Shown here in pieces: positions 881 through 64,000 of a stretch of 64,000 nucleotides of DNA. The position numbers were made by a program, and so were the translations under genes. The first letter of the stretch is position 1; the number at the start of each line of letters is the position of its first letter. This stretch comes from Flavobacteriales bacterium (GTDB taxonomy: Bacteria; Bacteroidota; Bacteroidia; Flavobacteriales_F; PHOS-HE28): positions 2,869,284 to 2,933,283 of the forward strand of contig CP065018.1 of NCBI GenBank assembly GCA_016700415.1, in the 5' to 3' direction. The notes beneath the pieces were generated by a model, which saw nothing but the letters and a program-made list of their open reading frames with translations, had not been told where the DNA came from and ran no database searches.

Positions 881-3337
881 CTATCCACCATGCACGAACA
901 CCCGTTTCACCCTCGGGCTGATGGAGGTGAGCGCCTCGTAAGGTATCGTGCCGAGGTCGCGGGCGTATTCCTGAACAGGATGTGCCGGGGAGAAGAGAAT
1001 GGCTTCATCGCCCACAGCGCAGGGGATGTGGGTGACATCCACCATGCACATGTCCATGCAGATCGCCCCTGTAAAACGTGCCTCCTGGCCATGTATCCAG
1101 AGGCGACCACGGCCTTCACCAAGTCGTCGTGAAAGTCCGTCCGCGTAGCCGATGGGCAGCACAGCGATGCGCGTTGGCACGGTGACACGGGTCTTGCGCC
1201 CATAGCTGATGCTGTCCCCGGCGGGGATCTCCTTCACCTGTGCGATCACCGTGCGGAGCGTTTCCACGGGTTGCAACAACGCCGTCTCTCCGGCATCGGC
1301 CCCGATGCCGTGCAGGCCGATCCCCAGCCGCACCATGTTGAACCGGGCCTCGGGAAAGCGCGTAACTCCAGCGGAATTGGCGATGTGCAACAACGGGGCA
1401 TAGCCCAGCACATCGGTGATGGTGGCGGAAAGCGAACGGAACAACATGATCTGTTCCCGCGTGAACGCATCGTGCTGCGGGTCTTCGCTGGCGGCCAAGT
1501 GGGAGAGGATGGAGGCCACGTGCAGCTTCTTCGTTCCGCGAAGCGCGTCCAGTACGGTGGGCACTTCTTCCGGCATGAAGCCAAGGCGGTGCATGCCGGT
1601 GTCCAGCTTGATGTGGACCGCCGGCGCGTCGGGCACATGCTCCGCGAAATCCAGCGCGGCCTTCAGTGATCGGGCGTCATACACCTCCGCCTCCAAGTGA
1701 TAGCGGTGCAGCGTTTCCATCGGCACTGGCTCGGGGTTCATCACCAGCACGGGCGTTCGGATGCCCTGCCTGCGCAGCTCGATGCCCTCGTCCGCGTATG
1801 CTACGCCGAGCCATGCCACCTGCTCGTGCGCGAAGAAGCGGGCCAGTTCCGCCGCGCCGCTGCCATAGCCGCCCGCCTTCACCATGGCCATGATGCGGAC
1901 GTCCGGACCGCACAGCTCACGATAGTGGTTCAGGTTGTGGCGCAGGGCCTCCACGTCGATCTCCATCACGGTGCCGTGGGTGCGTTCCTCCCAGCGCTCC
2001 ACCACGCGCTCCAGCTCGAAGCGGCGCGCGCCCTTCACCAAGGTCACAGCTCCGTCCACGGGCGGCTCCGGTAGTGCCTGCAGCAATTGTGCGGCATCGG
2101 TGAAGAAGCGTGTGGTGTCGGAGAAAAGCGCCGCGTGCTCCTGCATTCCTGGACCGATCGCGAACAGTTGTTCCACCTGCGCGGCCCGGAGCAGCCCGGC
2201 GATCCGTGCATACAGCTGCGCCGGTGCCTCACCGCTTTCCGAGATGTCCGATAGCACGACCGTCTTCGGCCGGCCGACGGCCATGCGGGTCAATTGCGAG
2301 AGCGCGATGGTGAGCGAGGCTAGGTCGTTGCTGTAGGCGTCGTTCAGCAAGGTGCCGTTATTCATGCCCGGCAACATCTCCAAGCGCATGCTCACGGGGC
2401 GAAGATGGTACATGCGGTCGGCGATGGTTCCCGGGGTGCGGCCCAACAGGAAGAGCAGGGTGATGCAGTGCAGGGCGTTCTCCACCGAAGCGCCGTCGGT
2501 GAAAGGAAGCAGCACATCGAACTCCTTCCCATTGCATTGCAGCGACAGGCGCGTATCGCTTTCCTCGATGTTCTCTTTCAGGATCCGCAGATAGGCCTCC
2601 TCCTTCCGTGACCATGCATGTAACGCTGGCCCGTTCAACTTCGCCAGTGCGGCATGCACGTCGGCATGATCGCGGCAATAGACCACGGACTTGGCGTCGC
2701 GGAAGAGCTTCGCCTTCTCTTCAGCCTTGGCCGTGTCGTTCGGGAAACCAGCACTGTGCGCCGGGCCGATGTTGGTGAAGATCCCGATGTCCGGCGCGAT
2801 GATGCGTGCAAGGGCTTGCATCTCACCGGGTTCGCTGATACCCGCCTCGAAGAGACCGAGGGTATCTTCTTCACTGATCTCCCAAACACTCAGCGGCACG
2901 CCCACTTGGCTGTTCCAACTTCCGGGGCTGCGCACGATCCGCTCTTCTTCCGCGAGCAGCTGGTTCAGCCATTCCTTCACCACGGTCTTCCCATTGCTTC
3001 CGGTGATGCCGATCACGGGCAGTTTGAACTGCGCACGGTGCCACGCGGCCAGGTCCTGCAGGGCCTTCAGGGTATCGTCCACCTCGATCACGCTGTCCCC
3101 TTCGGCCATGGGAACGGCACCGCGTTGCACCAGAAAGGCGTGTACGCCGCGCTGCCGGAGTTCCGCGATATAGCGATGCCCGTCGTGGTGCTTGCCGGTG
3201 AGGGCGATGAAGAGGCTGCCTTCCGCAGGGAAGGGCTGCCGCGTGTCGATACTGAGATGGTCGATGCGTTGGTCCGCGCCGTGCAGCACGCCCCCGGTGG
3301 CCGCAGCGATCCGGCTCAGCAGCCTGCCTTCGGGCAT
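881..3337 (-). CDS. murF: bifunctional UDP-N-acetylmuramoyl-tripeptide--D-alanyl-D-alanine ligase (MurF) / alanine racemase (Alr) fusion
   Basis: The N-terminal ~450 aa carry MurF motifs (GITGSNGKT, ligase middle and C domains). The C-terminal ~370 aa are a PLP alanine racemase (AMVKAGGYG..., YGR...). The likely start is the internal ATG at 3335-3337, which forms a TGATG overlap with the tdk stop; the longer ORF reaching 3403 would overlap tdk. Confidence 0.88.
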   Translation of the reverse strand: MPEGRLLSRIAAATGGVLHGADQRIDHLSIDTRQPFPAEGSLFIALTGKHHDGHRYIAELRQRGVHAFLVQRGAVPMAEGDSVIEVDDTLKALQDLAAWHRAQFKLPVIGITGSNGKTVVKEWLNQLLAEEERIVRSPGSWNSQVGVPLSVWEISEEDTLGLFEAGISEPGEMQALARIIAPDIGIFTNIGPAHSAGFPNDTAKAEEKAKLFRDAKSVVYCRDHADVHAALAKLNGPALHAWSRKEEAYLRILKENIEESDTRLSLQCNGKEFDVLLPFTDGASVENALHCITLLFLLGRTPGTIADRMYHLRPVSMRLEMLPGMNNGTLLNDAYSNDLASLTIALSQLTRMAVGRPKTVVLSDISESGEAPAQLYARIAGLLRAAQVEQLFAIGPGMQEHAALFSDTTRFFTDAAQLLQALPEPPVDGAVTLVKGARRFELERVVERWEERTHGTVMEIDVEALRHNLNHYRELCGPDVRIMAMVKAGGYGSGAAELARFFAHEQVAWLGVAYADEGIELRRQGIRTPVLVMNPEPVPMETLHRYHLEAEVYDARSLKAALDFAEHVPDAPAVHIKLDTGMHRLGFMPEEVPTVLDALRGTKKLHVASILSHLAASEDPQHDAFTREQIMLFRSLSATITDVLGYAPLLHIANSAGVTRFPEARFNMVRLGIGLHGIGADAGETALLQPVETLRTVIAQVKEIPAGDSISYGRKTRVTVPTRIAVLPIGYADGLSRRLGEGRGRLWIHGQEARFTGAICMDMCMVDVTHIPCAVGDEAILFSPAHPVQEYARDLGTIPYEALTSISPRVKRVFVHGG

Positions 3338-3945
3338 CACGTGAACAAGGTGTTCTTGGCTCCGGACTTTTCCGCGCGGGCCGCATCGAAGCAGTCGCGG
3401 CACAGCGGTTCATAGCTGTCCGTTTCGCCCAGCAGGATCAGGCGTTCGCTGGCGTTGGTCCGGTGGCTGAAGGTGGCCAGCTCGCCGCAGCGCATACATA
3501 TCGCGTGCACCTTGGTGACGAATTCCGCGATGGCCAGCAGTTGCGGCATCGGCCCGAAAGGGCGGCCTTGGAAGTCCATATCGAGGCCGGCGACGATCAC
3601 GCGCACCCCTTGTGAAGCGAGTTGCTCGCAAACACGCGGCAGGTGCTCATCGAAGAACTGCGCCTCATCGATGCCCACCACTTCCAGATCGCCGGCCTGT
3701 TGCAGCAGTGCAGCACTGTCGCGCACCGGGATGCTGGGGATGGTACGCTTGTCGTGGCTCACCACATCGGACTCGTGGTAGCGTGTATCAGTGCCGGGCT
3801 TGAAGATGCCCACGCGCTGTTTGGCGAACTCCGCGCGGCGCAATCGGCGGATCAATTCCTCGGTCTTTCCCGAGAACATGCTGCCGCAAACGACCTCGAT
3901 CCAGCCCTTCTTCCGTGAGCGATCACTGGTGTGTTCCAGGAACAT
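3337..3945 (-). CDS. tdk: thymidine kinase
   Basis: P-loop [14 protein letters not shown], a C-terminal zinc ribbon (CxxC...CRDC), and a length of 202 aa. Confidence 0.9.
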
Positions 3946-4033
3946 GTAACAGAAAGGCTAGACGGACTTGTGATGCAGCCATTTGGGAAGCGGCACGAAT
4001 TTAGCCAAATTCGCACGCACCGGAACCCACGAC

Positions 4034-4783
4034 ATGCCCCAGCAAAAAGCACTTGAACGCATGAACGAGCTGATCCGCTCCTTGCAACAGGCCATCGGCC
4101 GGTTGGGGGAGGGGAAGCTCGACCTGCCCGAACTCGAGCAATGCGCCGAGGATGCCCGGGCACTCTATGAACGCTTGGTGGTGCTGCGGCACAAAGCGCG
4201 GGAAGCCGCTGTGGTCGCGGGTAAGAAGGAAGCTGCGAACACCGCCGGGGTAAGGCCGGCCACCGTGGAGGAAGCCATTGCTGAGGCGGACGTGAAGGAA
4301 AGCGTGATCCGTCTGGACACGCGCCCGGCAGAGCTGTCACCGCACCAGACCTCGTTGATCGATGCGATCGCCGAGACCGAGACACCTCCCGTATCCAAGC
4401 CCACCACTGAGGCCGCGACGCCTCCCAGGCCTGCCACTGAGGCCCCTAAACCTTCTGCACAGCCCAAGCCCAAACCGCCGAAGGTCATCCCGGTGAAGGA
4501 GAAGCAGGAACAACCGATCAGCGTGGCCGACAAGATGGAGCACGCGCCTGTTGCCGACCTGCGTAAGGCGATCGCGTTGAGCCAGAAGTTCTGGTTTGTC
4601 GCGGAGCTTTTCGGCGGAGAACGCGACCGCTATGAGAAGGCCATCGACGCCATCAACGGCATGGGTAGCAAAGAGGAAGCCGAAGCTTTTATGCGCACGG
4701 AGGTAACGGGCAAACTGCCCAAGCCACCGGGCGAGGAGGTCGCCGCCACGTTCACGGACCTGTTGCAACGGCGATTCAGCTGA
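4034..4783 (+). CDS. hypothetical protein with a Pro/Ala-rich low-complexity central region
   Basis: ORF 3983-4783, with the first plausible ATG at 4034 (MPQQKALERMNEL). Codon usage is high-GC. Its stop overlaps the next gene's start by 1 nt (TGATG). Confidence 0.5.
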   Translation: MPQQKALERMNELIRSLQQAIGRLGEGKLDLPELEQCAEDARALYERLVVLRHKAREAAVVAGKKEAANTAGVRPATVEEAIAEADVKESVIRLDTRPAELSPHQTSLIDAIAETETPPVSKPTTEAATPPRPATEAPKPSAQPKPKPPKVIPVKEKQEQPISVADKMEHAPVADLRKAIALSQKFWFVAELFGGERDRYEKAIDAINGMGSKEEAEAFMRTEVTGKLPKPPGEEVAATFTDLLQRRFS

Positions 4784-49403: not shown

Positions 49404-49540
49404 GACCCCGAAGGGGTCGCAGAAATTAGGATCGTGCGCGCAAGTCTCGACCCTGCAAGGGTCGCAGCCAGCCATAGTCCCGTGTGATAATGTATTTCTT
49501 TAGTGCAAAATGGTCCATGGGATCAGACCCCGAAGGGTTC
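49404..49540. repeat. REP cluster (three palindromic units) on the 3' side of the RAYT gene
   Basis: gaccccgaaggggtc (49404-49418), gaccctgcaagggtc (49449-49463) and gaccccgaagggttc (49526-49540). Each is a GACCC(C/T)-N3-GGG(G/T)TC hairpin, and the first two are followed by GCAG. Confidence 0.7.
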
Positions 49541-49624: not shown

Positions 49625-50068
49625 TCATACAAAATACTTGAGGTCGTATTCAACACCATGGTCCGCCAACAGGCTGAGCAATTCTTCCTTGTATGTCCGT
49701 GTGCCGTGGTGTTCCTCTTGCCGATCGATGTAGCTCCTTATCATCTCCCGCTCCCGATGGCTTACGGTAAAGGCGGCGTAGCCTTCCTGCCAGTGGAAAT
49801 TCCGCAGCCCGACCTCGTCGCGCAACCAGACGGTGGATGCCTTTTTCAACTCTCTCACGATATCTGAAAGGACGTGGGTGGCTTTAAGCCCAAAGAGCAG
49901 ATGCACGTGGTCGTTCCAGCCACCGGTGTTCTGTGGGAATCCGCCAAGACCTTTTATCGTTCCGCCCATGTAGCTGTGCAATTGATCTCGCCATTTCCGG
50001 TCAAGACAGGGCACTCGGTTTTTAGTGGAAAAGACCACATGGTAATGCAGGCTGAGGTAGGTGGACAT
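49625..50068 (-). CDS. rayT: REP-associated tyrosine transposase (RAYT; IS200/IS605-like Y1 HuH)
   Basis: 147 aa. YHVVFSTKNR N-terminus, the HuH motif in NDHVHLLF, and the catalytic Tyr region EGYAAFTV. Flanked by REP palindromes. Confidence 0.85.
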   Translation of the reverse strand: MSTYLSLHYHVVFSTKNRVPCLDRKWRDQLHSYMGGTIKGLGGFPQNTGGWNDHVHLLFGLKATHVLSDIVRELKKASTVWLRDEVGLRNFHWQEGYAAFTVSHREREMIRSYIDRQEEHHGTRTYKEELLSLLADHGVEYDLKYFV

Positions 50069-50079
50069 GATGCCGCTGT

Positions 50080-50151
50080 GACCCCGTTGGGGTCAGGTAA
50101 GGTAGAAGGTGCGTGGGGGATGAACTAATTTCTGTGACCCCTTCCGGGGTC
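50080..50151. repeat. REP cluster (two palindromic units) on the 5' side of the RAYT gene, inverted relative to the other cluster
   Basis: ctgtGACCCCgttGGGGTCag (50080-50094) and ctgtGACCCCttccGGGGTCgg (50136-50151). GTGACCCC heads; the orientation is opposite to the units at 49404-49540. Confidence 0.7.
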
Positions 50152-56975: not shown

Positions 56976-58290
56976 TCGCCATCTTGGCCCCGCCGCCCTT
57001 GCCCGCCGTGGCGCGCAAGAGGTCGTGACCGATGTCGGTGCGGTTCGTTTTTCCTTCGAAGTCGATCAATGAGGCGCTGGCGTAGGCGTTGAGTATGGCA
57101 TGCTCGGTGTCCTTGCCGAAGGCCGTCACGCTGAGCACCCGCCCGCCCGCGGTCACTAATTCATCCCCTTTCATGGCGGTGCCGGATTGGAAGATGTGTG
57201 CGGCCTGCACCCTTTCAAGCCCCACGATGGGCTTTCCCGTTTCCACCTTTCCCGGATAACCTTCCGAGGCCAGCACCACGGTGGTGCTCGTGCGGTCGTC
57301 CACGTCCACGTGCCGTTCGCTCAGGGTGCCCGTGGCGATGCCCTCGAAGAGGTCCATCAGGTCGCTGCGCAGGCGCGGCAGAATGGCTTGCGCCTCCGGA
57401 TCGCCGAGGCGCACGTTGTATTCGATCACGTAAGGCTCGCCGCCCACGTTCATCAGCCCGATGAAGAGAAAGCCCTGGTAGGGAATACCCTCGCTGCGCA
57501 GGCCGCGGATGGTGGGCACCGCGATGCGGTCATTGACCTTGCCCATGAATTCTTTGTCCGCGAAAGGAACGGGTGAGACCGCGCCCATGCCGCCGGTGTT
57601 CGGCCCGGTGTCGCCGTCGCCGATGCGCTTGTAGTCCTTGGCCACGGGAAGCATCTTGAAGGCCTCGCCATCGGTGATGAGGAAAGCCGATACCTCTACG
57701 CCCGTGAGGTGCTGTTCGATCAGCACGCGTTCCGCGGCGGCACCGAAGCTGTCACCGCCGAGCATCGCGTTCAGCGTCGCTTCGGCCTCCTTGCGGTCCG
57801 CGCAGATCACCACGCCCTTGCCTTGCGCTAGCCCGTCCGCCTTGATCACGTACGGTGCCTCCATGCGGCCGATGTGTGTGATCGCCTCGGCCAACTGGTC
57901 CTTACCGAAGGCGCGGAACGCCGCCGTGGGGATGTTGTGCCGGAACATGAACTCCTTGGCGAATTCCTTGCTTCCCTCCAGTTGCGCACCGGCAGCCTTC
58001 GGGCCGATCACCGTCACTAAGCCCTTGAGCTGCGGGTCCGCCGCGATGCGGTCGTGCAGCCCGTCCACCAGCGGACCTTCAGGGCCCACCACCACCATGC
58101 GGATGCGCTTGTCGATGATGAGCTGCCGCACCGCGCGCTGGTCCTTCAGGTCCAGCTTCACATTGCGCCCGTGCCGCACCGTGCCGGGGTTCCCCGGGGC
58201 CACATACAGCTCGTCCAACATGGAGCTCTGCGCCAGTTTCCAGGCCAAGGCATGTTCCCTGCCCCCGCCGCCGATCAACAATACGTTCAT
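56968..58290 (-). CDS. purD: phosphoribosylamine--glycine ligase
   Basis: MNVLLIGGGGREHALAWKL N-terminus and the ATP-grasp core. Start at the internal ATG at 58290. Confidence 0.9.
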   Translation of the reverse strand: MNVLLIGGGGREHALAWKLAQSSMLDELYVAPGNPGTVRHGRNVKLDLKDQRAVRQLIIDKRIRMVVVGPEGPLVDGLHDRIAADPQLKGLVTVIGPKAAGAQLEGSKEFAKEFMFRHNIPTAAFRAFGKDQLAEAITHIGRMEAPYVIKADGLAQGKGVVICADRKEAEATLNAMLGGDSFGAAAERVLIEQHLTGVEVSAFLITDGEAFKMLPVAKDYKRIGDGDTGPNTGGMGAVSPVPFADKEFMGKVNDRIAVPTIRGLRSEGIPYQGFLFIGLMNVGGEPYVIEYNVRLGDPEAQAILPRLRSDLMDLFEGIATGTLSERHVDVDDRTSTTVVLASEGYPGKVETGKPIVGLERVQAAHIFQSGTAMKGDELVTAGGRVLSVTAFGKDTEHAILNAYASASLIDFEGKTNRTDIGHDLLRATAGKGGGAKMAIK

Positions 58291-58339
58291 GGTCCTGTGC
58301 CTTTCGCACAAAGGAAGAACCCTTCCGCTGGGAAAGGAA

Positions 58340-59107
58340 ATGAAGTTTCCAACAATTCAAGAAGTGACCGAGCGGGAAGCGGCACGAGCGCTGGGTTTGG
58401 ACTGCACCCTAACCCCGGCCCTCAGCACCTTCTACAACTACGCCGCGCTGCTCGGCCTAAAGCGCAAGCGACTTAAAGGGCTGGTAAAGAGGCAGGGTAT
58501 CCGGGCCACGACCCCTAATGAATACCTGCATGTGGATACCACCTTCTGGGGTTTGGACCATGACCTGAAGGCCGCGATCGTGCTGGTGAGTGATAACTTC
58601 TCAAAAGCCATTTTGGGGTGGAACATCGCACTCGGCAAGCACGCCGTCAATGTGGTGGAAGCGCTGCGCCAGGCCATCACTACCATTCACCAATACCATC
58701 CTGGGCAGGTGAACGCCAACCTTGTCGCCGACGCAGGTGGTGAAAACCATGCGGACTGTGTTGAGGCACTCCTGGATGCTACCAAGGATCCGCTCATCAC
58801 CAAGTTGATCGCGCAGCGGGACATTCGCTTTTCCAACTCCCCCATCGAGGCCATCAACAAGATCCTCAAGCAATATCTGCGGCATTACAACCCGCGCACA
58901 CTCCCCGCCTTAAAGAAGGTGCTCATCCAGTTCGTGCAGGATTATAATTCCGTAAGGCCGCATGGCACGCTCAAAGGCCTGACCCCGATGGAGGCGTACG
59001 TACACCCGGAGCTGAAACCCAATTTCCGAAAACCGGTCCAAGAGGTGAGGGGGATCCGATTGGAAGAGAATAGGAAAGGGAATTGTGGCGGTTGCATGAA
59101 CCAATAG
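58340..59107 (+). CDS. IS3-family OrfB-like DDE transposase (rve integrase core); lone, probably a remnant
   Basis: The tract ...TPNEYLHVDTTF...SDNFSKAILGW...SNSPIEAINKILKQ...YNSVRPHGTLKGLTPMEAY is the rve fold. There is no OrfA/HTH part upstream because purD starts 50 bp away. The upstream 700 nt of the ORF are antisense to purD. Confidence 0.72.
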   Translation: MKFPTIQEVTEREAARALGLDCTLTPALSTFYNYAALLGLKRKRLKGLVKRQGIRATTPNEYLHVDTTFWGLDHDLKAAIVLVSDNFSKAILGWNIALGKHAVNVVEALRQAITTIHQYHPGQVNANLVADAGGENHADCVEALLDATKDPLITKLIAQRDIRFSNSPIEAINKILKQYLRHYNPRTLPALKKVLIQFVQDYNSVRPHGTLKGLTPMEAYVHPELKPNFRKPVQEVRGIRLEENRKGNCGGCMNQ

Positions 59108-59270
59108 GGGATGGGCCACAGACCTCAAGCGGGGGAGAATGGGTCTTGGAATACGATCCGACGGAACTTCGATGGGATGATGGCGATCCGTTTCGGATCC
59201 CGGGTCCTTTCTTCCGCGATCCAATGACGGACAACTGATCAAGATGCGGTCCACACCTCCTTAAAACTGC

Positions 59271-59290
59271 CACTTCGAAATTTCGAAGTG
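59271..59290. promoter_or_regulatory. perfect 20-bp palindrome CACTTCGAAATTTCGAAGTG
   Basis: Read directly from the sequence. It lies in the non-coding stretch between the transposase remnant and the low-GC gene. It could be an operator or a terminator hairpin. Confidence 0.3.
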
Positions 59291-59403
59291 TTCATTCCGG
59301 GTTTCTCTTGGAAGTAGCACGGGTAACTCACGCTCTGCATTACTCTCCTGCACAAGGGTTTGCTTGTGACTACTGCCCAACTACCCACCAAGTGCTGCAA
59401 GAG

Positions 59404-59859
59404 TTATGCACTTTTCAATGGCGGGACGGGTGGGTGCAAAACATTCTCCACAACACCGGACGGGGATAACATCTTATCGCCTTGCATTCTCGTGAATAAC
59501 TCTCGCAGTGAAGCGTAATCAACAGGATAATGATGGCCCTTGTATGAAACGGTATCAATGCCACACGATTCTAAATATGTCCCGATACGCCATGAGTCTA
59601 TGCCATTTGGCACTTCAACCATCGCAGCGTGCGCGTCCACCACCACACCGCTCCTTGGCTGCTTGAACGTTATTCCAGATCCGTGAACGTGATACTCCCA
59701 ATACTCATTGGTTGTCACAAATCCAGATTTAGGAATAGATGAAACAAAGTTTTCACGCCCTGATGGGTGGTCATGATTAGCGAATATCCTATCAACAAGC
59801 TCCTTCTGTATTCTTGCATATTCGACCAATAACCTGATTATGTCTTTGGTGCCGGTCAT
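59404..59859 (-). CDS. hypothetical protein in a low-GC islet (possible orphan immunity/accessory gene)
   Basis: 151-aa ORF whose DNA has 38-45% GC against ~63% for the window, and is flanked by transposase genes. No motif recognised. Confidence 0.5.
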   Translation of the reverse strand: MTGTKDIIRLLVEYARIQKELVDRIFANHDHPSGRENFVSSIPKSGFVTTNEYWEYHVHGSGITFKQPRSGVVVDAHAAMVEVPNGIDSWRIGTYLESCGIDTVSYKGHHYPVDYASLRELFTRMQGDKMLSPSGVVENVLHPPVPPLKSA

Positions 59860-59952
59860 CTTCGAAGCGTTTCCCTTAGATATTGGGCCTCGGATACTTG
59901 GGCGGCTCGTAAAGCTGATTGTTGCGGGCTAAGAGAAATAGTGTTTACAGGC

Positions 59953-60026
59953 CCCACGCTCCCGCAAGTCTTCCCGGCCAGCAAAAACTTGCGTTCCAAC
60001 ATGGATAGCCGGGGCGACTTGTGGGT
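59953..60026 (+). repeat. hairpin repeat copy 1 (left end of the IS200-like element)
   Basis: cccacgctcccgcaagtcttcccgg...ccggggcgacttgtgggt. The arms are mutually complementary (17-nt stem, 3 mismatches). About 88% identical to 63641-63714. Confidence 0.65.
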
Positions 60027-60085
60027 GCTGTACGATGCTTCCATCCATGCTTATCCGTGAAGTCTTCGGACTTCACACCAAGACC

Positions 60086-60634
60086 TTAATACGGCTCCAA
60101 TTTAAGCAGACCCGGCTTTCCTGCAATGGCCGGTGCTGAGCTGTAAACGTAATCCTCCGCCTGTTCCACATAACCCTCCACCGCCGGGTTATCGTGCAAG
60201 TAATTCAACTTCTGCGTGATCACCTCCCCAGAGATCAACTGTACGGGTCGATCGTCTTGTCGCCAAAACTGGTAATGCATGTTGTTCGAGTTGGCCGCGC
60301 CGGCCTTGGCAAAGATCGGCAGCATCCATTCCTTGCGGCTCTCTTGGTTGTTATCTGCAATGGCCTTTAAGATCTGCGAGGATGTGAATTTCTTGAGGTC
60401 CCGCAGGATGTCCGGCAAGGCATGGCCTTCTGCCGCCGCCGCGATCAAATGCACATGGTTGCTCATGATCACCCAGGCGTACAACAGCAGGCCTTTCTTC
60501 TCCTGGCAATGTCTCAGGCTGTCCACAATGATGTCCTTGTATTCGCGCCGAGTGAACACGTCCACCCACTCGACGGTGGCGAAGGAAATGAAGTAGGTTC
60601 CTTCGGGATCGTGGAACTTGTAGCTACGGCTCAT
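60086..60634 (-). CDS. tnpA: IS200/IS605-like Y1 (HuH) transposase, Bacteroidetes 'TnpA_REP' type
   Basis: 183 aa. MSRSYKFHDPEGTYFISFATVEWVDVFTRREY..., the HuH motif in SNHVHLI, and the catalytic Tyr in YVYSS. Confidence 0.85.
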   Translation of the reverse strand: MSRSYKFHDPEGTYFISFATVEWVDVFTRREYKDIIVDSLRHCQEKKGLLLYAWVIMSNHVHLIAAAAEGHALPDILRDLKKFTSSQILKAIADNNQESRKEWMLPIFAKAGAANSNNMHYQFWRQDDRPVQLISGEVITQKLNYLHDNPAVEGYVEQAEDYVYSSAPAIAGKPGLLKLEPY

Positions 60635-60713
60635 GCAGCTCCGAAGGTAGTTCCGTGCGGCAGTCTGAAGACTGCCGGAAGCTTCCGTGCCTTTATCGGC
60701 TTCTGAGCGTATG

Positions 60714-60808
60714 CCCACAAGTCGCCCCGGCCTGTATGGTCAGGAGCCATGCCTGCGGCAGACAGGCTCACTTTACCGTTGGGCCGGGAAGACTTGCGGG
60801 AGCTTTGG
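60714..60808 (-). repeat. hairpin repeat copy 2 (inverted; right end of the IS200-like element)
   Basis: gcccacaagtcgccccgg ... ccgggaagacttgcgggagc is the reverse complement of the copy-1 arms, with a longer internal loop. Confidence 0.6.
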
Positions 60809-61135
60809 GGTTCGTTGAACGAATTCGTAGAAAGCGTTGCCTTGGCGACCAACAACATATACACAACCGGCATCAACAGCAGTTCGGATGTCGACTATGA
60901 CCCCTCTGCGGAGCATGTATTGCCGTTGACCGCTGCCGGCGATAATGACATCCTCCTTCTGCATTACCCACTTTCAGGCAAGGTGATCGGCGATGAGCGA
61001 CCACCTGTCCGGAAGTGGTGGCCCATACCGAAGCCCCACATTCCCTATTACATCGGTGCGGCGATCATAGGGATCATGGTCATTGTCTTAGTGCGCGTGA
61101 AGCGCCGTCGCGGAGGAGAGGGGAACGGTGCCTAG
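60749..61135 (+). CDS. hypothetical single-pass membrane protein (speculative; its start lies inside repeat copy 2)
   Basis: C-terminal TM helix plus a basic tail (IPYYIGAAIIGIMVIVLVRVKRRRGG). The only in-frame ATG is inside the inverted repeat, so the ORF may be an artefact. Confidence 0.2.
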   Translation: MPAADRLTLPLGREDLRELWGSLNEFVESVALATNNIYTTGINSSSDVDYDPSAEHVLPLTAAGDNDILLLHYPLSGKVIGDERPPVRKWWPIPKPHIPYYIGAAIIGIMVIVLVRVKRRRGGEGNGA

Positions 61136-61269
61136 TGCTTGTTGAACCGGCGCAGTGTGTCCGTCGTTTATGATCGTAAACGCAGCGTGAACGTGGCTCT
61201 CTGCTGCTGCCCCGATGCAATGATGTACCGGTCACGATCGTGATCGATCCCCGATTGAAGGAGCAGGGT

Positions 61270-63186
61270 TCATTGCTCGGCGATAAGCACTTTGCCGGTC
61301 ACGACCACAGCATTGTAGCTCACGCGCACGCTGTACACGCCTGGCGTCGGGGACTGTAGCTTCACCTGTGTATTGCCCGTGGCCCCCGGCAGCACATCCA
61401 CTGCGACCAACCTGCCCAGCGCATCCCGAACATCGATCACGGCGCCATCAGGAACGCTCGATACCATGAACGCTCCATTGCTCGGGTTCGGATAGCATAG
61501 CAATGCGTCCTGGATCAATTGCACCGGGACCACCGGCGAGAACTTGAAGCTCCCGTCCAAGTCCACGGTCCGCAGCCGATAATAGCTCAAGCCCGGCAGC
61601 GGCGCATGGTCCGTAGTGGCGTAGCGGATCGGCATCTGTGAGTTCCCCGCCGCGTCGACCACATCCACTTTTTCCCAGGTCCCCGTATCGCCGGAGCGTT
61701 CCACATCGAAGTGCGAACTGTTCAACTCGCTCGCCGTGACCCACTCCAAAGCCACATCCCGGTCGATGGCCTTGGCCTCGAAGGATAAGAGCTCCACGGG
61801 CAACGGAGAACAACTCACCCCGGCAGTGCCACCGAACTGCAGGGGTACCGTAGTGGTCACAGAACTCCAATTGCTGAAGCAGATGAGCCATTGTGTATTG
61901 GCCCCTACGTTCAAGGGTGGCTCGAAATTGCTCGGATCCCCCCCGGCGGGAGGTGTGGTTGCCAAGCCGGTCCCCCCGAACGAAACGCCGTTCCAATTGC
62001 AGCGTACCGGCGCGAGTGCATTGGACGCAACGGCACCGCACGCACTGGCATCGTACGGGTACATGGCCCAGTCGTAGAAGCCTGTTTGTGTGCCCAAGCC
62101 TCCGAAAGTGAAGGCCAACGAGCCGCCGGTGAGCACGTTCACCACCATCCACGTACTGTTCAATTCCTCGTTCCGCAAGCAGCCTTCGTTATAAGTGCCC
62201 CAGGGATTGTAGTACGGTGGCGTGAACGAGAAAATGCCATAGTCGGGATTGCCATAGGAGCCGAGCGGAGGGATCTCATTGGTGTTTCCGAAGCCATTGG
62301 GGTCGATCTGGAAATCGATGTTCGTGCACACGGGCACTGCCAGAATGCAATCGCTGGCCGTCACCGGAGGGGGTACCGAGGAAACGGTGATGCTGAACGT
62401 ACCCGGGCAGGGGCTCTGAGGTGTGGGCCACGTATCGAAGATGATCCAATACTGCACCCCGGCCGTCATTGTTACGACGAGGCTCTGAGCGGTGCCAGTA
62501 CCACTTACCGACCCCTGGCACATTCCCCCGGCAGCAGGGCATGCACCACTGTATACCCAGATCGAACTGTAGCTCTGTCCGGCGTAATTGATCACGTAGT
62601 TGTCCGTGGTGGTGGGCGTCACCGAGTACAGGGCTTCGTTGCCTCCAAGATAGAGCGTACTGCCCGAGCCGCAGATCCCCACGTTCGTGCTCGTAAGCAG
62701 ATCGGAAGCGTGACAGATAACGGCCTGTCCGGTCACGGGCAGGCTCGGGATGCTCACCGCCGTGCACTGTCCTGGAGGAGGGGGGCATGAAGTACAGGCG
62801 ATCGTCGTAGTGCAACAGTTGCTCGCCGTTCCGCAAGCTGCGTTGGTGTTCCAGTGCAAGTAATAGGTGCCGGCCGTCGGTGCCGTGAAGGTCAATGGCG
62901 AATTACCGTTCGCGACAAACGTCCCGTTGTAGGTGACTCGTCGCACGGTGATGTAGCCTCCGCAGTCACTGGTGACCGTGTATGACGTTCCCGCGACGAT
63001 GCCCGTTATGGTGCTGTATTCCGACTGGAAACTGCAAGTGCTGATGGTGACCGGGGTAGTGCTCGTGGGGGCGGCGGCGGAGCCGTATGCCGTGGTATTC
63101 GTACACTGCCCACTCGCTGTGATCATGCATCCGACGGCCATCGCGCACAACAGGGGGCGGAGGATGGATGTCGGGAGGTTTGCCAT
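61270..63186 (-). CDS. Cys-rich secreted protein with a T9SS C-terminal sorting domain
   Basis: Internal ATG at 63186 gives the signal peptide MANLPTSILRPLLCAMAVGCMITASGQ. There are many Cys and Thr/Ser-rich Ig-like segments. The C-terminal tract LLCYPNPSNGAFMV...GVYSVRVSY...VLIAEQ is a type-A CTD. Confidence 0.75.
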   Translation of the reverse strand: MANLPTSILRPLLCAMAVGCMITASGQCTNTTAYGSAAAPTSTTPVTISTCSFQSEYSTITGIVAGTSYTVTSDCGGYITVRRVTYNGTFVANGNSPLTFTAPTAGTYYLHWNTNAACGTASNCCTTTIACTSCPPPPGQCTAVSIPSLPVTGQAVICHASDLLTSTNVGICGSGSTLYLGGNEALYSVTPTTTDNYVINYAGQSYSSIWVYSGACPAAGGMCQGSVSGTGTAQSLVVTMTAGVQYWIIFDTWPTPQSPCPGTFSITVSSVPPPVTASDCILAVPVCTNIDFQIDPNGFGNTNEIPPLGSYGNPDYGIFSFTPPYYNPWGTYNEGCLRNEELNSTWMVVNVLTGGSLAFTFGGLGTQTGFYDWAMYPYDASACGAVASNALAPVRCNWNGVSFGGTGLATTPPAGGDPSNFEPPLNVGANTQWLICFSNWSSVTTTVPLQFGGTAGVSCSPLPVELLSFEAKAIDRDVALEWVTASELNSSHFDVERSGDTGTWEKVDVVDAAGNSQMPIRYATTDHAPLPGLSYYRLRTVDLDGSFKFSPVVPVQLIQDALLCYPNPSNGAFMVSSVPDGAVIDVRDALGRLVAVDVLPGATGNTQVKLQSPTPGVYSVRVSYNAVVVTGKVLIAEQ

Positions 63187-63203
63187 CTTCACCCTATGTT
63201 CGT

Positions 63204-63599
63204 TCACCGGTTCAGCGCAGGGCCGCAGTTGCATGCCTGGGGATCCAAATGCTTGAATTGGCCGCTAGGGGCGAGGGGTCCGCGCTTGAAGCAGTGTGCG
63301 CTCACCCCGAATGGCTGGATGAGGGTGTTTATAGCGCCCAGGTCAAGCGTGCATTCCGGCAAGGCATGGATCAGCAGGTTCTTCGTGTACATATCGGTCC
63401 TGCTCATCACTACGTTAGGCTGGGCCGCCAACACCGCATTGATCTCGGCTGCGTGTTGTGGCGAAACGATACCCGTGATCACCGCTTGGATCTGGTCCAC
63501 CTGACAATGGCTGGCGGGGGAGAAGGTGATGACGCATACCACTAGGAGCGCCATCCTCAGCACCGCTGCGGACCATCGACGCGAATATCTACTGGCCAT
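63204..63599 (-). CDS. hypothetical secreted protein
   Basis: N-terminus MASRYSRRWSAAVLRMALLVVCVITFSPASHCQ looks like a signal peptide. No recognised domain. The solo hairpin repeat lies 42 bp upstream. Confidence 0.4.
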   Translation of the reverse strand: MASRYSRRWSAAVLRMALLVVCVITFSPASHCQVDQIQAVITGIVSPQHAAEINAVLAAQPNVVMSRTDMYTKNLLIHALPECTLDLGAINTLIQPFGVSAHCFKRGPLAPSGQFKHLDPQACNCGPALNR

Positions 63600-63640
63600 G
63601 AACTAACAAAACAAGTGAATTATCACGATGTACACAAGGT

Positions 63641-63714
63641 CCCACGCTCCCGCAACTCTTCCCGGTCAGCAAGATCTTGCGTTCCGGCATGGTCAGCCGG
63701 GGCGACTTGTGGGT
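63641..63714 (+). repeat. hairpin repeat copy 3 (solo, MITE/REPIN-like)
   Basis: 74 bp, ~88% identical to 59953-60026 with the same arm sequences. There is no adjacent transposase. Confidence 0.65.
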
Positions 63715-63753
63715 AATGCGAAATACTTTTCTCCAATCCTATCCGTGCAGGCT

Positions 63754-64000
63754 TCACTCCCGCTTCACGCTGCACCCGATGTTGCGCGTGGTGGCCGGTT
63801 CCGGTGCGCGCCCTTCCACTACGGCGGTGATGGCGTTCCGCAGCCACGGCTCTTTCACGCCGTCGGCACTTTTCACGTTATCGTCGATCGCGCCTTTGTA
63901 GACCAGCTTCATGTCCTTGTCGAAGAGGAAGACATGGGGCGTGGTGCGGGCACCGAAGGCATCGGCCAGCGCATGGCCTTGGTCCAGCAGGTAGCTACCA
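63754..64000 (-). CDS. thioredoxin-fold (TlpA/redoxin-like) protein, C-terminal 81 codons; N-terminus lies beyond the window end
   Basis: Reverse-strand translation ...SYLLDQGHALADAFGARTTPHVFLFDKDMKLVYKGAIDDN...NIGCSVKRE* shows the TPHxFLxDKDGKxVYxGAIDDN redoxin signature. Stop codon at 63754-63756. Confidence 0.55.
   Translation of the reverse strand, partial: GSYLLDQGHALADAFGARTTPHVFLFDKDMKLVYKGAIDDNVKSADGVKEPWLRNAITAVVEGRAPEPATTRNIGCSVKRE

Follow-up and report, generated by a model that had tools for sequence, protein, structure and literature searches.

A Flavobacteriales RAYT gene between inverted two-hairpin modules: a probable REPtron

A gene for a transposase associated with repetitive extragenic palindromes (REPs), i.e., a RAYT or TnpA_REP, lies in a 64,000-nucleotide (nt) stretch of DNA from a Flavobacteriales bacterium (GenBank assembly GCA_016700415.1, contig CP065018.1, positions 2,869,284 to 2,933,283). 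We refer to this whole stretch as the window and count positions from its first letter. The gene is bracketed by two inverted copies of a structured repeat, here called the L and R modules, and a third copy without a transposase is found nearby. We consider it likely, with a probability of about 80%, that the locus constitutes a "REPtron," that is, a RAYT/TnpA_REP gene bracketed by its cognate structured repeats.

The RAYT gene occupies positions 60086..60634 on the negative strand and encodes 182 amino acids (aa) counted from its ATG; an upstream GTG start would lengthen the open reading frame (ORF) to 210 aa. Its 3' flank is the L module (59952..60081, positive strand), which consists of arm A (59952-59979), a 31-nt loop region, arm B (60008-60025), the conserved linker TTCCATCCATGC, and a short hairpin, hp2. 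The latter (60057..60076, positive strand; GTGAAGTC-TTCG-GACTTCAC) is located 9 nt from the RAYT stop codon. The 5' flank is the R module (60640..60809, negative strand), which reaches the start codon. It comprises arm A (60782-60809), arm B (60714-60731), a 20-nt extra stem-loop inside the loop, and the short hairpin hp1 (60659..60676, negative strand; GGCAGTC-TTCA-GACTGCC), found 25 nt upstream of the RAYT ATG. The third copy is a solo L module (63640..63755, positive strand), which has no transposase, is decayed, and is cut within hp2 at the stop codon at 63754.

A repeat search of the window recovered 28-nt inverted arms (59952-59979 and 60782-60809) that were 93% complementary, as well as perfect 18-nt arms (60008-60025 and 60714-60731), a third perfect copy of which was found at 63696-63713. 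These results bear out an earlier description of the window made from its letters and ORFs (the sequence-only reading), which had placed the transposase between two inverted copies of a self-complementary repeat. The same search returned a direct repeat of 119 nt (59949-60067 and 63637-63755) with an identity of 80%. In the 73-nt core of the hairpin, 8 positions differed between the left copy and the solo copy (~89% identity), in line with the 88% previously given for the third, transposase-less copy. When up to 3 mismatches were allowed, the 18-mer of arm B had 5 matches in the window compared with 0.2 expected by chance, and the 20-mer of arm A had 3 compared with 0.01 expected.

The anatomy of the modules was defined by alignments of copies from many loci. 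Two types were distinguished, L (~128 nt) and R (~155 nt), which face each other as inverted repeats around the RAYT gene. The 74-bp unit of the sequence-only reading was therefore too short, the module of ~128 to 155 nt extending inward to include the short hairpin. Arm A (CTCCCGCAAGTCTTCCCGGC) is close to the reverse complement of arm B (GCCGGGGCGACTTGTGGG), and the stem that they form, 17 to 18 bp long with one mismatch and two G.T pairs, agrees well with the 17-bp stem proposed earlier. The long hairpin is made of the foot GCTCC, a stem of ~17 bp (CCCGCAAGTC..GACTTGTGGG), in which G.T pairs are conserved, and a loop of 31 to 54 nt, which is longer in R than in L. The core AGTC-TTCN-GACT is common to the long and short hairpins, so that the long hairpin looks like the short one with an expanded loop. 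In full, the foot of the hairpin reads (CCCCAC)GCTCC, and it carries no canonical 5' GT[AG]G tag.

We also considered whether the repeat is a REP doublet forming a hairpin (REPIN) in the strict sense and rejected this assignment. Each arm finds its pairing partner solely in the other and does not fold alone; hence, the unit is a single long hairpin and not a doublet of palindromic REPs. The earlier proposal of a REP/REPIN-type system thus stands as far as a REP/RAYT system with a dispersed nonautonomous repeat is concerned and falls for the REPIN, since its arms are not palindromic themselves.

The modules have a clear potential to fold. As single-stranded DNA (ssDNA), the left and right copies were predicted to fold with energies of -22 to -26 kcal/mol and z scores of -2.2 to -3.9 (two copies, both strands). 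Whole modules gave -31 kcal/mol and z of -4.8 for L and -38.7 kcal/mol and z of -4.4 for R, and both hairpins were predicted in each of them, in keeping with the self-pairing suggested by the sequence-only reading. In the solo copy, arm A has two substitutions that weaken the stem, and this copy folded no better than shuffled sequences (z of -0.5 and -1.9). Scores against the nhmmer module profiles were 138 bits for the L module of the window, 119.6 bits for its R module, and 98 bits for the solo L.

Conservation of pairing was evaluated in 17 L and 18 R modules. In the L modules, 96% of the stem cells were paired. The helix of hp2, which was present in all full L modules, was 94.9% paired. 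The L stems were nearly invariant, with one compensatory C-G to A-T pair in 2 of the 17 sequences, and covariation was therefore uninformative for L. The R stems were paired in 92.6% of the cells and displayed 12 compensatory cells. For example, pair 16-108 was A-T in 10 sequences and C-G in 6, and pair 20-89 was C-G in 15 sequences and G-C in 2. The observed values were not attained in any of 500 shuffles, and partners slid out of register paired at 31 to 46%.

The protein itself pointed to the same kind of system. It matched the Pfam family Y1_Tnp (PF01797) with 31.5 bits (cutoff, 23) and the NCBIfam model NF047646, REP_Tyr_transpos, with 90 bits (cutoff, 80), but it scored 25.6 bits against the IS200 model NF033573, below the cutoff of 55. 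A database search returned 3,447 homologs, the named ones among them being "REP-associated tyrosine transposase" or "REP element-mobilizing transposase RayT"; assemblies named Flavobacteriales bacterium supplied the closest ones. Judged by these sequence matches, the window protein is a RAYT/TnpA_REP and not an IS200 transposase. The sequence-only reading had described it as an IS200-like Y1 transposase of 183 aa; the Y1/HUH part of that description, with its NHVH motif, is retained, whereas the protein is a RAYT by NF047646, fails the IS200 model, and is 182 aa long.

Across 17 homologs, down to 59% identity, the invariant residues were H60, H62, W124, Q126, Y145, H147, N149, P150, Y162, Y164, and S166. 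H60 and H62 belong to the NHVH (NHVHL) motif, Y145 to P150 to NYLHDNP, and Y162, Y164, and S166 to DYVYSS, while the W motif of the window RAYT reads FWRQ. The best solved relative in a family-profile search was 4ER8, the TnpArep of Escherichia coli, with an E value of 1.3e-5; a single-sequence search found a very weak similarity to E. coli TnpA_REP (E value of 0.06). The profile alignment equates NYLHENP with DYIYINP of 4ER8 and DYVYSS with DWPFST, and ~30 extra residues are found between the two stretches aligned to 4ER8. On the strength of the E. coli precedent, the YxxxNP motif of the family, and the alignment to 4ER8, Y145 of NYLHDNP is most likely the catalytic residue. The tyrosine of YVYSS, which the sequence-only reading had named, was set aside in favor of Y145 because of the same alignment, even though Y162 and Y164 are likewise invariant. 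YVYSS is instead a conserved C-terminal "SS" tail motif.

Relatives of the locus were gathered by a pattern scan with a degenerate 18-mer over one genome per species, a 19-mer scan of metagenomes, and a scan of the fetched loci, designated by numbers such as L053, with the L and R profiles. Among the matches listed, the pattern scan gave mostly single chance matches in unrelated phyla, and paired A/B matches in at least ~10 Flavobacteriales or Bacteroidetes metagenome-assembled genomes (MAGs). The metagenome scan added 55 further stretches. With nhmmer, the profiles yielded 156 module matches over the fetched loci, with 98 distinct outer flanks, and the arms were conserved across ~100 distinct copies. 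Modules were intergenic in every locus with gene calls and occurred in both orientations relative to the neighboring genes.

The R-RAYT-L cassette was found in seven distinct forms with 570 to 577 nt between the modules. In four of them, the encoded RAYTs were 92% (L053), 90% (L131), 85% (L031), and 84% (L056) identical to the window protein, and the module sequence accompanied this RAYT lineage in every cassette examined. One assembly, GCA_016716825.1, has the cassette of the window on contig 3 and the L131 cassette, next to dnaE, on contig 1. Its genome therefore holds two intact paralogous cassettes, the proteins of which are 90% identical, and three modules are present at the second RAYT locus. 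With further copies in the genome and arms conserved among the copies, neither of the outcomes that the sequence-only reading had named as refuting it came about. At 9646-10045 of L131 (and at 2257-2656 of L148), upstream of the second RAYT paralog, a segment made up of the R module plus 45 nt from the start of the coding sequence is tandemly duplicated. The junction of the duplication, TACTTC|CTCACGCTCCC, falls where the second R module has its outer tip, within the RAYT 5' coding remnant. Either a cassette was inserted in the 5' end of an older copy or the duplication was local.

Besides complete cassettes, the related genomes contained composites in which R and L retain the cassette arrangement without the RAYT gene. 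Eighteen distinct composites of 255 to 381 nt, with linkers of 30 to 90 nt, were found (for example, L088 at 1354-1674 and 2958-3295, L028, L076, L058, and L155). Some linkers retained pieces of the gene: ~75 nt of the RAYT 3' end in L165 and its start, ATGAGCC, in L088 and L125. These coding ends suggest that the composites arose by internal deletions of full cassettes with differing breakpoints. Solo L and solo R modules were also common among the relatives. In the readable parts of the window's own genome, no composite was seen.

Several modules of the relatives had small insertions in their arms, with arm B interrupted by a 16-nt palindrome (GCCGATAGGCATCGGC or GCTGATAGGCCTCGGC) or arm A by GTGCCACCAGGCA (L031 at 1776-1919 and L058 at 3867-4059; L056 at 2767-2904, L101, and L183), and the same insertions were present across assemblies. 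A number of contigs ended within or at a module (L020, L125, L134, L135, L142, L144, and L174), and the contig of L053 begins ~415 nt before its R module. Since short-read contigs break at modules, exact-match counts in MAGs are underestimates.

Modules were present or absent, depending on the genome, at one orthologous site, between purD and the gene of a thioredoxin-family (AhpC-like) protein. In L138 and L139, this interval was 150 nt long and contained no module. A solo R was found there in L137, and an rve_3 fragment and a solo R were found in L136. In L053, R-RAYT-L was positioned directly upstream of purD, and the order in the window was solo L, three genes including a cargo gene of the type IX secretion system (T9SS), R-RAYT-L, a DUF6896 gene, and an rve_3 gene. 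Modules and cassettes have thus been gained or lost at orthologous sites over evolutionary time. At least five unrelated genomic contexts harbored cassettes of different lineages, and similarity did not extend past the cassette ends.

The 98 distinct outer flanks had no conserved target motif except for the partly conserved CCCCAC at the tip of the element, and base composition was random beyond position -6. The target-site preference that the sequence-only reading had suggested looking for was therefore not apparent in these flanks. The composites showed no target-site duplication around them, which is what single-strand transposition by a HUH enzyme would predict.

Taken together with what is known of related enzymes, these observations suggest how the REPtron may work. 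The modules would fold into hairpins once the DNA becomes single stranded, e.g., in the lagging-strand template. The RAYT would bind the hairpins and would cut and rejoin the DNA via a 5'-phosphotyrosine link, probably at Y145, so that modules could be excised and reinserted without target duplication. Gene-less copies (solo modules of either type and, among the relatives, R+L composites) would be mobilized in trans. The ssDNA intermediate, the positions of cleavage, and the hairpin presumably recognized by the RAYT are all inferred by analogy with E. coli TnpA_REP and the TnpA proteins of the IS200/IS605 family.

Several results weigh against the REPtron interpretation or narrow it. The support from covariation is modest and supportive rather than decisive, the sequences being related and the L modules hardly variable. 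The lack of a GT[AG]G tag means that the guide-sequence recognition model of E. coli is not directly transferable. The window protein had an exact match at the same locus in at least 10 assemblies, which were 99.3 to 99.8% identical over 20.5 kb, and no insertion polymorphism was present at this locus in ten collinear assemblies of the species; in the absence of strain-level polymorphism, nothing indicates current activity. Copy number in this species also looks low, whereas enterobacteria and pseudomonads carry REPs by the hundreds. Besides the cassette, the 64-kb window contains a single solo module, and a 317-kb metagenome contig, 99% identical to L131, contained exact B-arm 19-mers only at its RAYT locus. 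This sample covers ~85 kb of the window's genome and the 317-kb contig of the same species, and exact searches miss diverged copies. Of the earlier suggestion that a MITE, a miniature transposable element with inverted repeats, is spreading in this genome, the spreading thus finds little support, and clear MITE forms, namely, the R+L composites, were found only among the relatives. Finally, tandem duplications (L131 and L155) mean that recombination or slippage also multiplies modules.

A different view of the mobile unit treats R-RAYT-L as a whole as an insertion sequence that is autonomous, or was so until recently, and not as a domesticated single-copy RAYT. The composites would then be deletion-derived miniatures similar to the palindrome-associated transposable elements (PATEs) of IS200/IS605, and the solo modules would be decayed ends. 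This view, which we regard as tentative, overlaps with the REPtron interpretation and differs from it in what moves. It accommodates the two intact paralogs with complete R and L modules in one assembly, the unrelated contexts of the cassettes (at least five) with homology stopping at module ends, and the empty orthologous site. The composites with both full flanks and variable RAYT end remnants point to repeated internal deletions, and the L131 junction TACTTC|CTCACGCTCCC places an exact R outer end inside a RAYT 5' coding remnant. However, the paralogs are just 90% identical in protein, which argues against recent copying, and near-identical copies of the cassette were not seen. The purD-side position of the cassette is common to two species with RAYTs that are 92% identical and fits vertical inheritance; the inverted-repeat ends are unlike the asymmetric ends of IS200/IS605 elements; and in-place decay of RAYT loci could account for the composites. 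It is conceivable, though less likely than not, that the cassette is still self-mobile with two-hairpin ends and spawns gene-less R+L miniatures in this Flavobacteriales lineage. If it is, the cassette would represent a living intermediate between autonomous IS200/IS605-type elements and the "domesticated," vertically inherited RAYTs of Proteobacteria.

The remaining explanations deny the repeats a link to the transposase or a wider family. If the repeats were structural or regulatory elements of the host (terminators, mRNA stabilizers, or protein-binding sites) multiplied by recombination, the transposase would be an incidental neighbor. Their extragenic location, several of them just after stop codons, would suit such elements, as would the tandem module duplications, and roles of this kind are described for REPs elsewhere in the literature available to us. 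Yet scans of the cassette (59850-60900) for sigma-70 promoters and intrinsic terminators found none, Bacteroidota promoters being outside the coverage of the scan, and no T tract was present in any of the three window modules. No Rfam family matched 59000-64000 at E values of up to 1. Copies are found in both orientations relative to the neighboring genes, the module co-occurs with this RAYT lineage in every examined cassette, the R module reaches the RAYT start codon, and some composites keep RAYT codon remnants, all of which makes a host function as the origin of the repeats very improbable. As to a local duplication or a chance palindrome without a wider family, the three window copies do all lie within 4 kb; nonetheless, 3 to 5 matches were observed where 0.01 to 0.2 were expected, and ~100 distinct copies exist across many assemblies and metagenomes, so that we give this explanation practically no credence.

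The surroundings of the modules deserve some further description. On one side of the solo L module is the thioredoxin-family gene, whose stop codon is at 63754, and on the other is an ORF of 131 aa; the T9SS cargo gene, which had been described as its neighbor, is one gene further away. Within 63740-63770, the solo L ends inside the hp2 loop, precisely where the thioredoxin-family gene has its stop codon. The 3' end of this gene, GTGAAGCGGGAGTGA, is kept in relatives that have no module, and it resembles half of hp2. The possibility that the T9SS cargo genes between the R module and the solo L are passengers of a composite transposon was dismissed because the outer ends of R and the solo L face the genes, placing them outside both. 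Between the L module of the window and purD are the DUF6896 gene (59404-59859) and the gene of an rve_3 integrase-type transposase (57638-59107). Both were absent at the purD-side position in L053, and a shorter rve_3 fragment was found beyond the solo R in L136. The AhpC-purD interval (57000-64000) is a rearrangement hot spot in the clade, with ~5.4 kb of inserted DNA in the window.

A second Y1 gene of the window (49625-50068, negative strand) encodes an IS200/IS605-type transposase of 147 aa, which scored 67.8 bits against NF033573 (cutoff, 55). Its product and the RAYT were 33% identical, and only over 39 residues. Five short GACCCCGAAGGGGTC-like palindromes flank the gene, as does an inverted repeat of 24 nt (49406-49429 and 50125-50148). 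Its tyrosine motif, YIDRQEEHH, is the signature of subclass 1.2, which, according to the available text of PMC6006769, generally lacks terminal hairpins or REPs. By protein type and palindromes, the repeat family at 49.4-50.2 kb and the RAYT system are separate, as the sequence-only reading had maintained.

Nearly all work on REP/RAYT systems has dealt with Proteobacteria, and the window locus represents a little-studied version from Bacteroidota. What is gained is a concrete anatomy, with two-hairpin end modules, gene-less composites, and paralogous cassettes. The core AGTC-TTCN-GACT is a candidate recognition element, and the rules of recognition can be tested with a few oligonucleotides. 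The locus also bears on whether Bacteroidota RAYTs still move as units. For annotation, the gene should be called RAYT, and the modules mark rearrangement-prone intergenic DNA at which short-read assemblies break.

Among the described classes of RAYTs, the window protein matches subclass 2.6 by its motifs. This subclass (Quentin et al. 2018, PMC6006769) is Group 5 of Bertels et al. 2017. In the text available to us, it is characterized by a length of ~179 aa, NH[LIV]H and YIH[QN]NP motifs, an insertion between helix C and strand 4, an SS proximal tail, and occurrence in Bacteroidetes; its repeats are said to have atypical secondary structures, typically without GT[AG]G. The window RAYT has 182 aa, NHVH, YLHDNP, DYVYSS, extra residues before the FW motif, and a Bacteroidota host, and its gene is likewise flanked by structures without GT[AG]G, copies of which are found elsewhere in the genome. 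Two entries of Table S1 of the same source, as far as available, resemble the window repeats. Belliella baltica AFL82922 is listed with a 122-nt nested hairpin built around CAGTCTTCAGACTG, a core that is also found in hp1 of the window, and the repeat of Flavobacterium indicum, GCTC-CCGCGCGAA-TCCT-TTCGCGTGG, has its GCTC foot and the CCGC/GTGG base of its stem in common with the long hairpin. On the other hand, the W motif of the window protein is FWRQ and not the tabulated WQ, and the available text does not describe two-hairpin L/R modules, RAYT-less composites, or paralogous cassettes. Some of the anatomical detail given here was likewise not found in the accessible parts of PMC6006769, PMC5581495, and PMC2817692.

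Elements of the IS200/IS605 family (IS608 and ISDra2) and PATEs share with the window system a Y1 HUH transposase, which here would similarly act on ssDNA hairpins, the lack of visible target-site duplications, and deletion derivatives that keep both structured ends. They differ from it in several respects. The window RAYT fails the IS200 model and has YxxxNP in place of Y---Q, its ends are inverted repeats as opposed to distinct, noninverted left and right ends, no conserved tetra- or pentanucleotide target flanks the ends of the window family, and multiple near-identical copies of the cassette were not found. REPINs of Pseudomonas fluorescens (Bertels and Rainey 2011, PMC3116915) are similar to the window modules in that they are extragenic, hairpin-forming sequences of ~70 to 100 nt that are associated with a RAYT and presumed to be mobilized in trans, and their decayed copies also lose stem pairing. 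Unlike REPINs, the arms of the window modules have no hairpins of their own, a short second hairpin in direct orientation completes the module, and abundance looks low.

A further precedent is the E. coli TnpA_REP (4ER8; a "REPtron" of Group 2, or subclass 2.2). Its REPs are ~35 nt long and present in hundreds of copies, in contrast to the two-hairpin modules of 128 to 155 nt of the window system, which are apparently far fewer, and the GTAG guide tetranucleotide is lacking in the latter. Both systems nevertheless have a HUH Y1 enzyme with a tyrosine on the YxxxNP helix and a gene placed between inverted palindromic repeats that recur in other extragenic DNA. RAYT genes are recognized by at least two flanking cognate palindromic repeats in inverted orientation (Nunvar 2010, PMC2817692). 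Such repeats flank the gene in the window, L053, L056, L031, and L131, and further extragenic copies are provided by the solo module at 63640-63755 and the modules of the second RAYT locus. The window locus thus adds to a known kind of bacterial mobile-DNA system.

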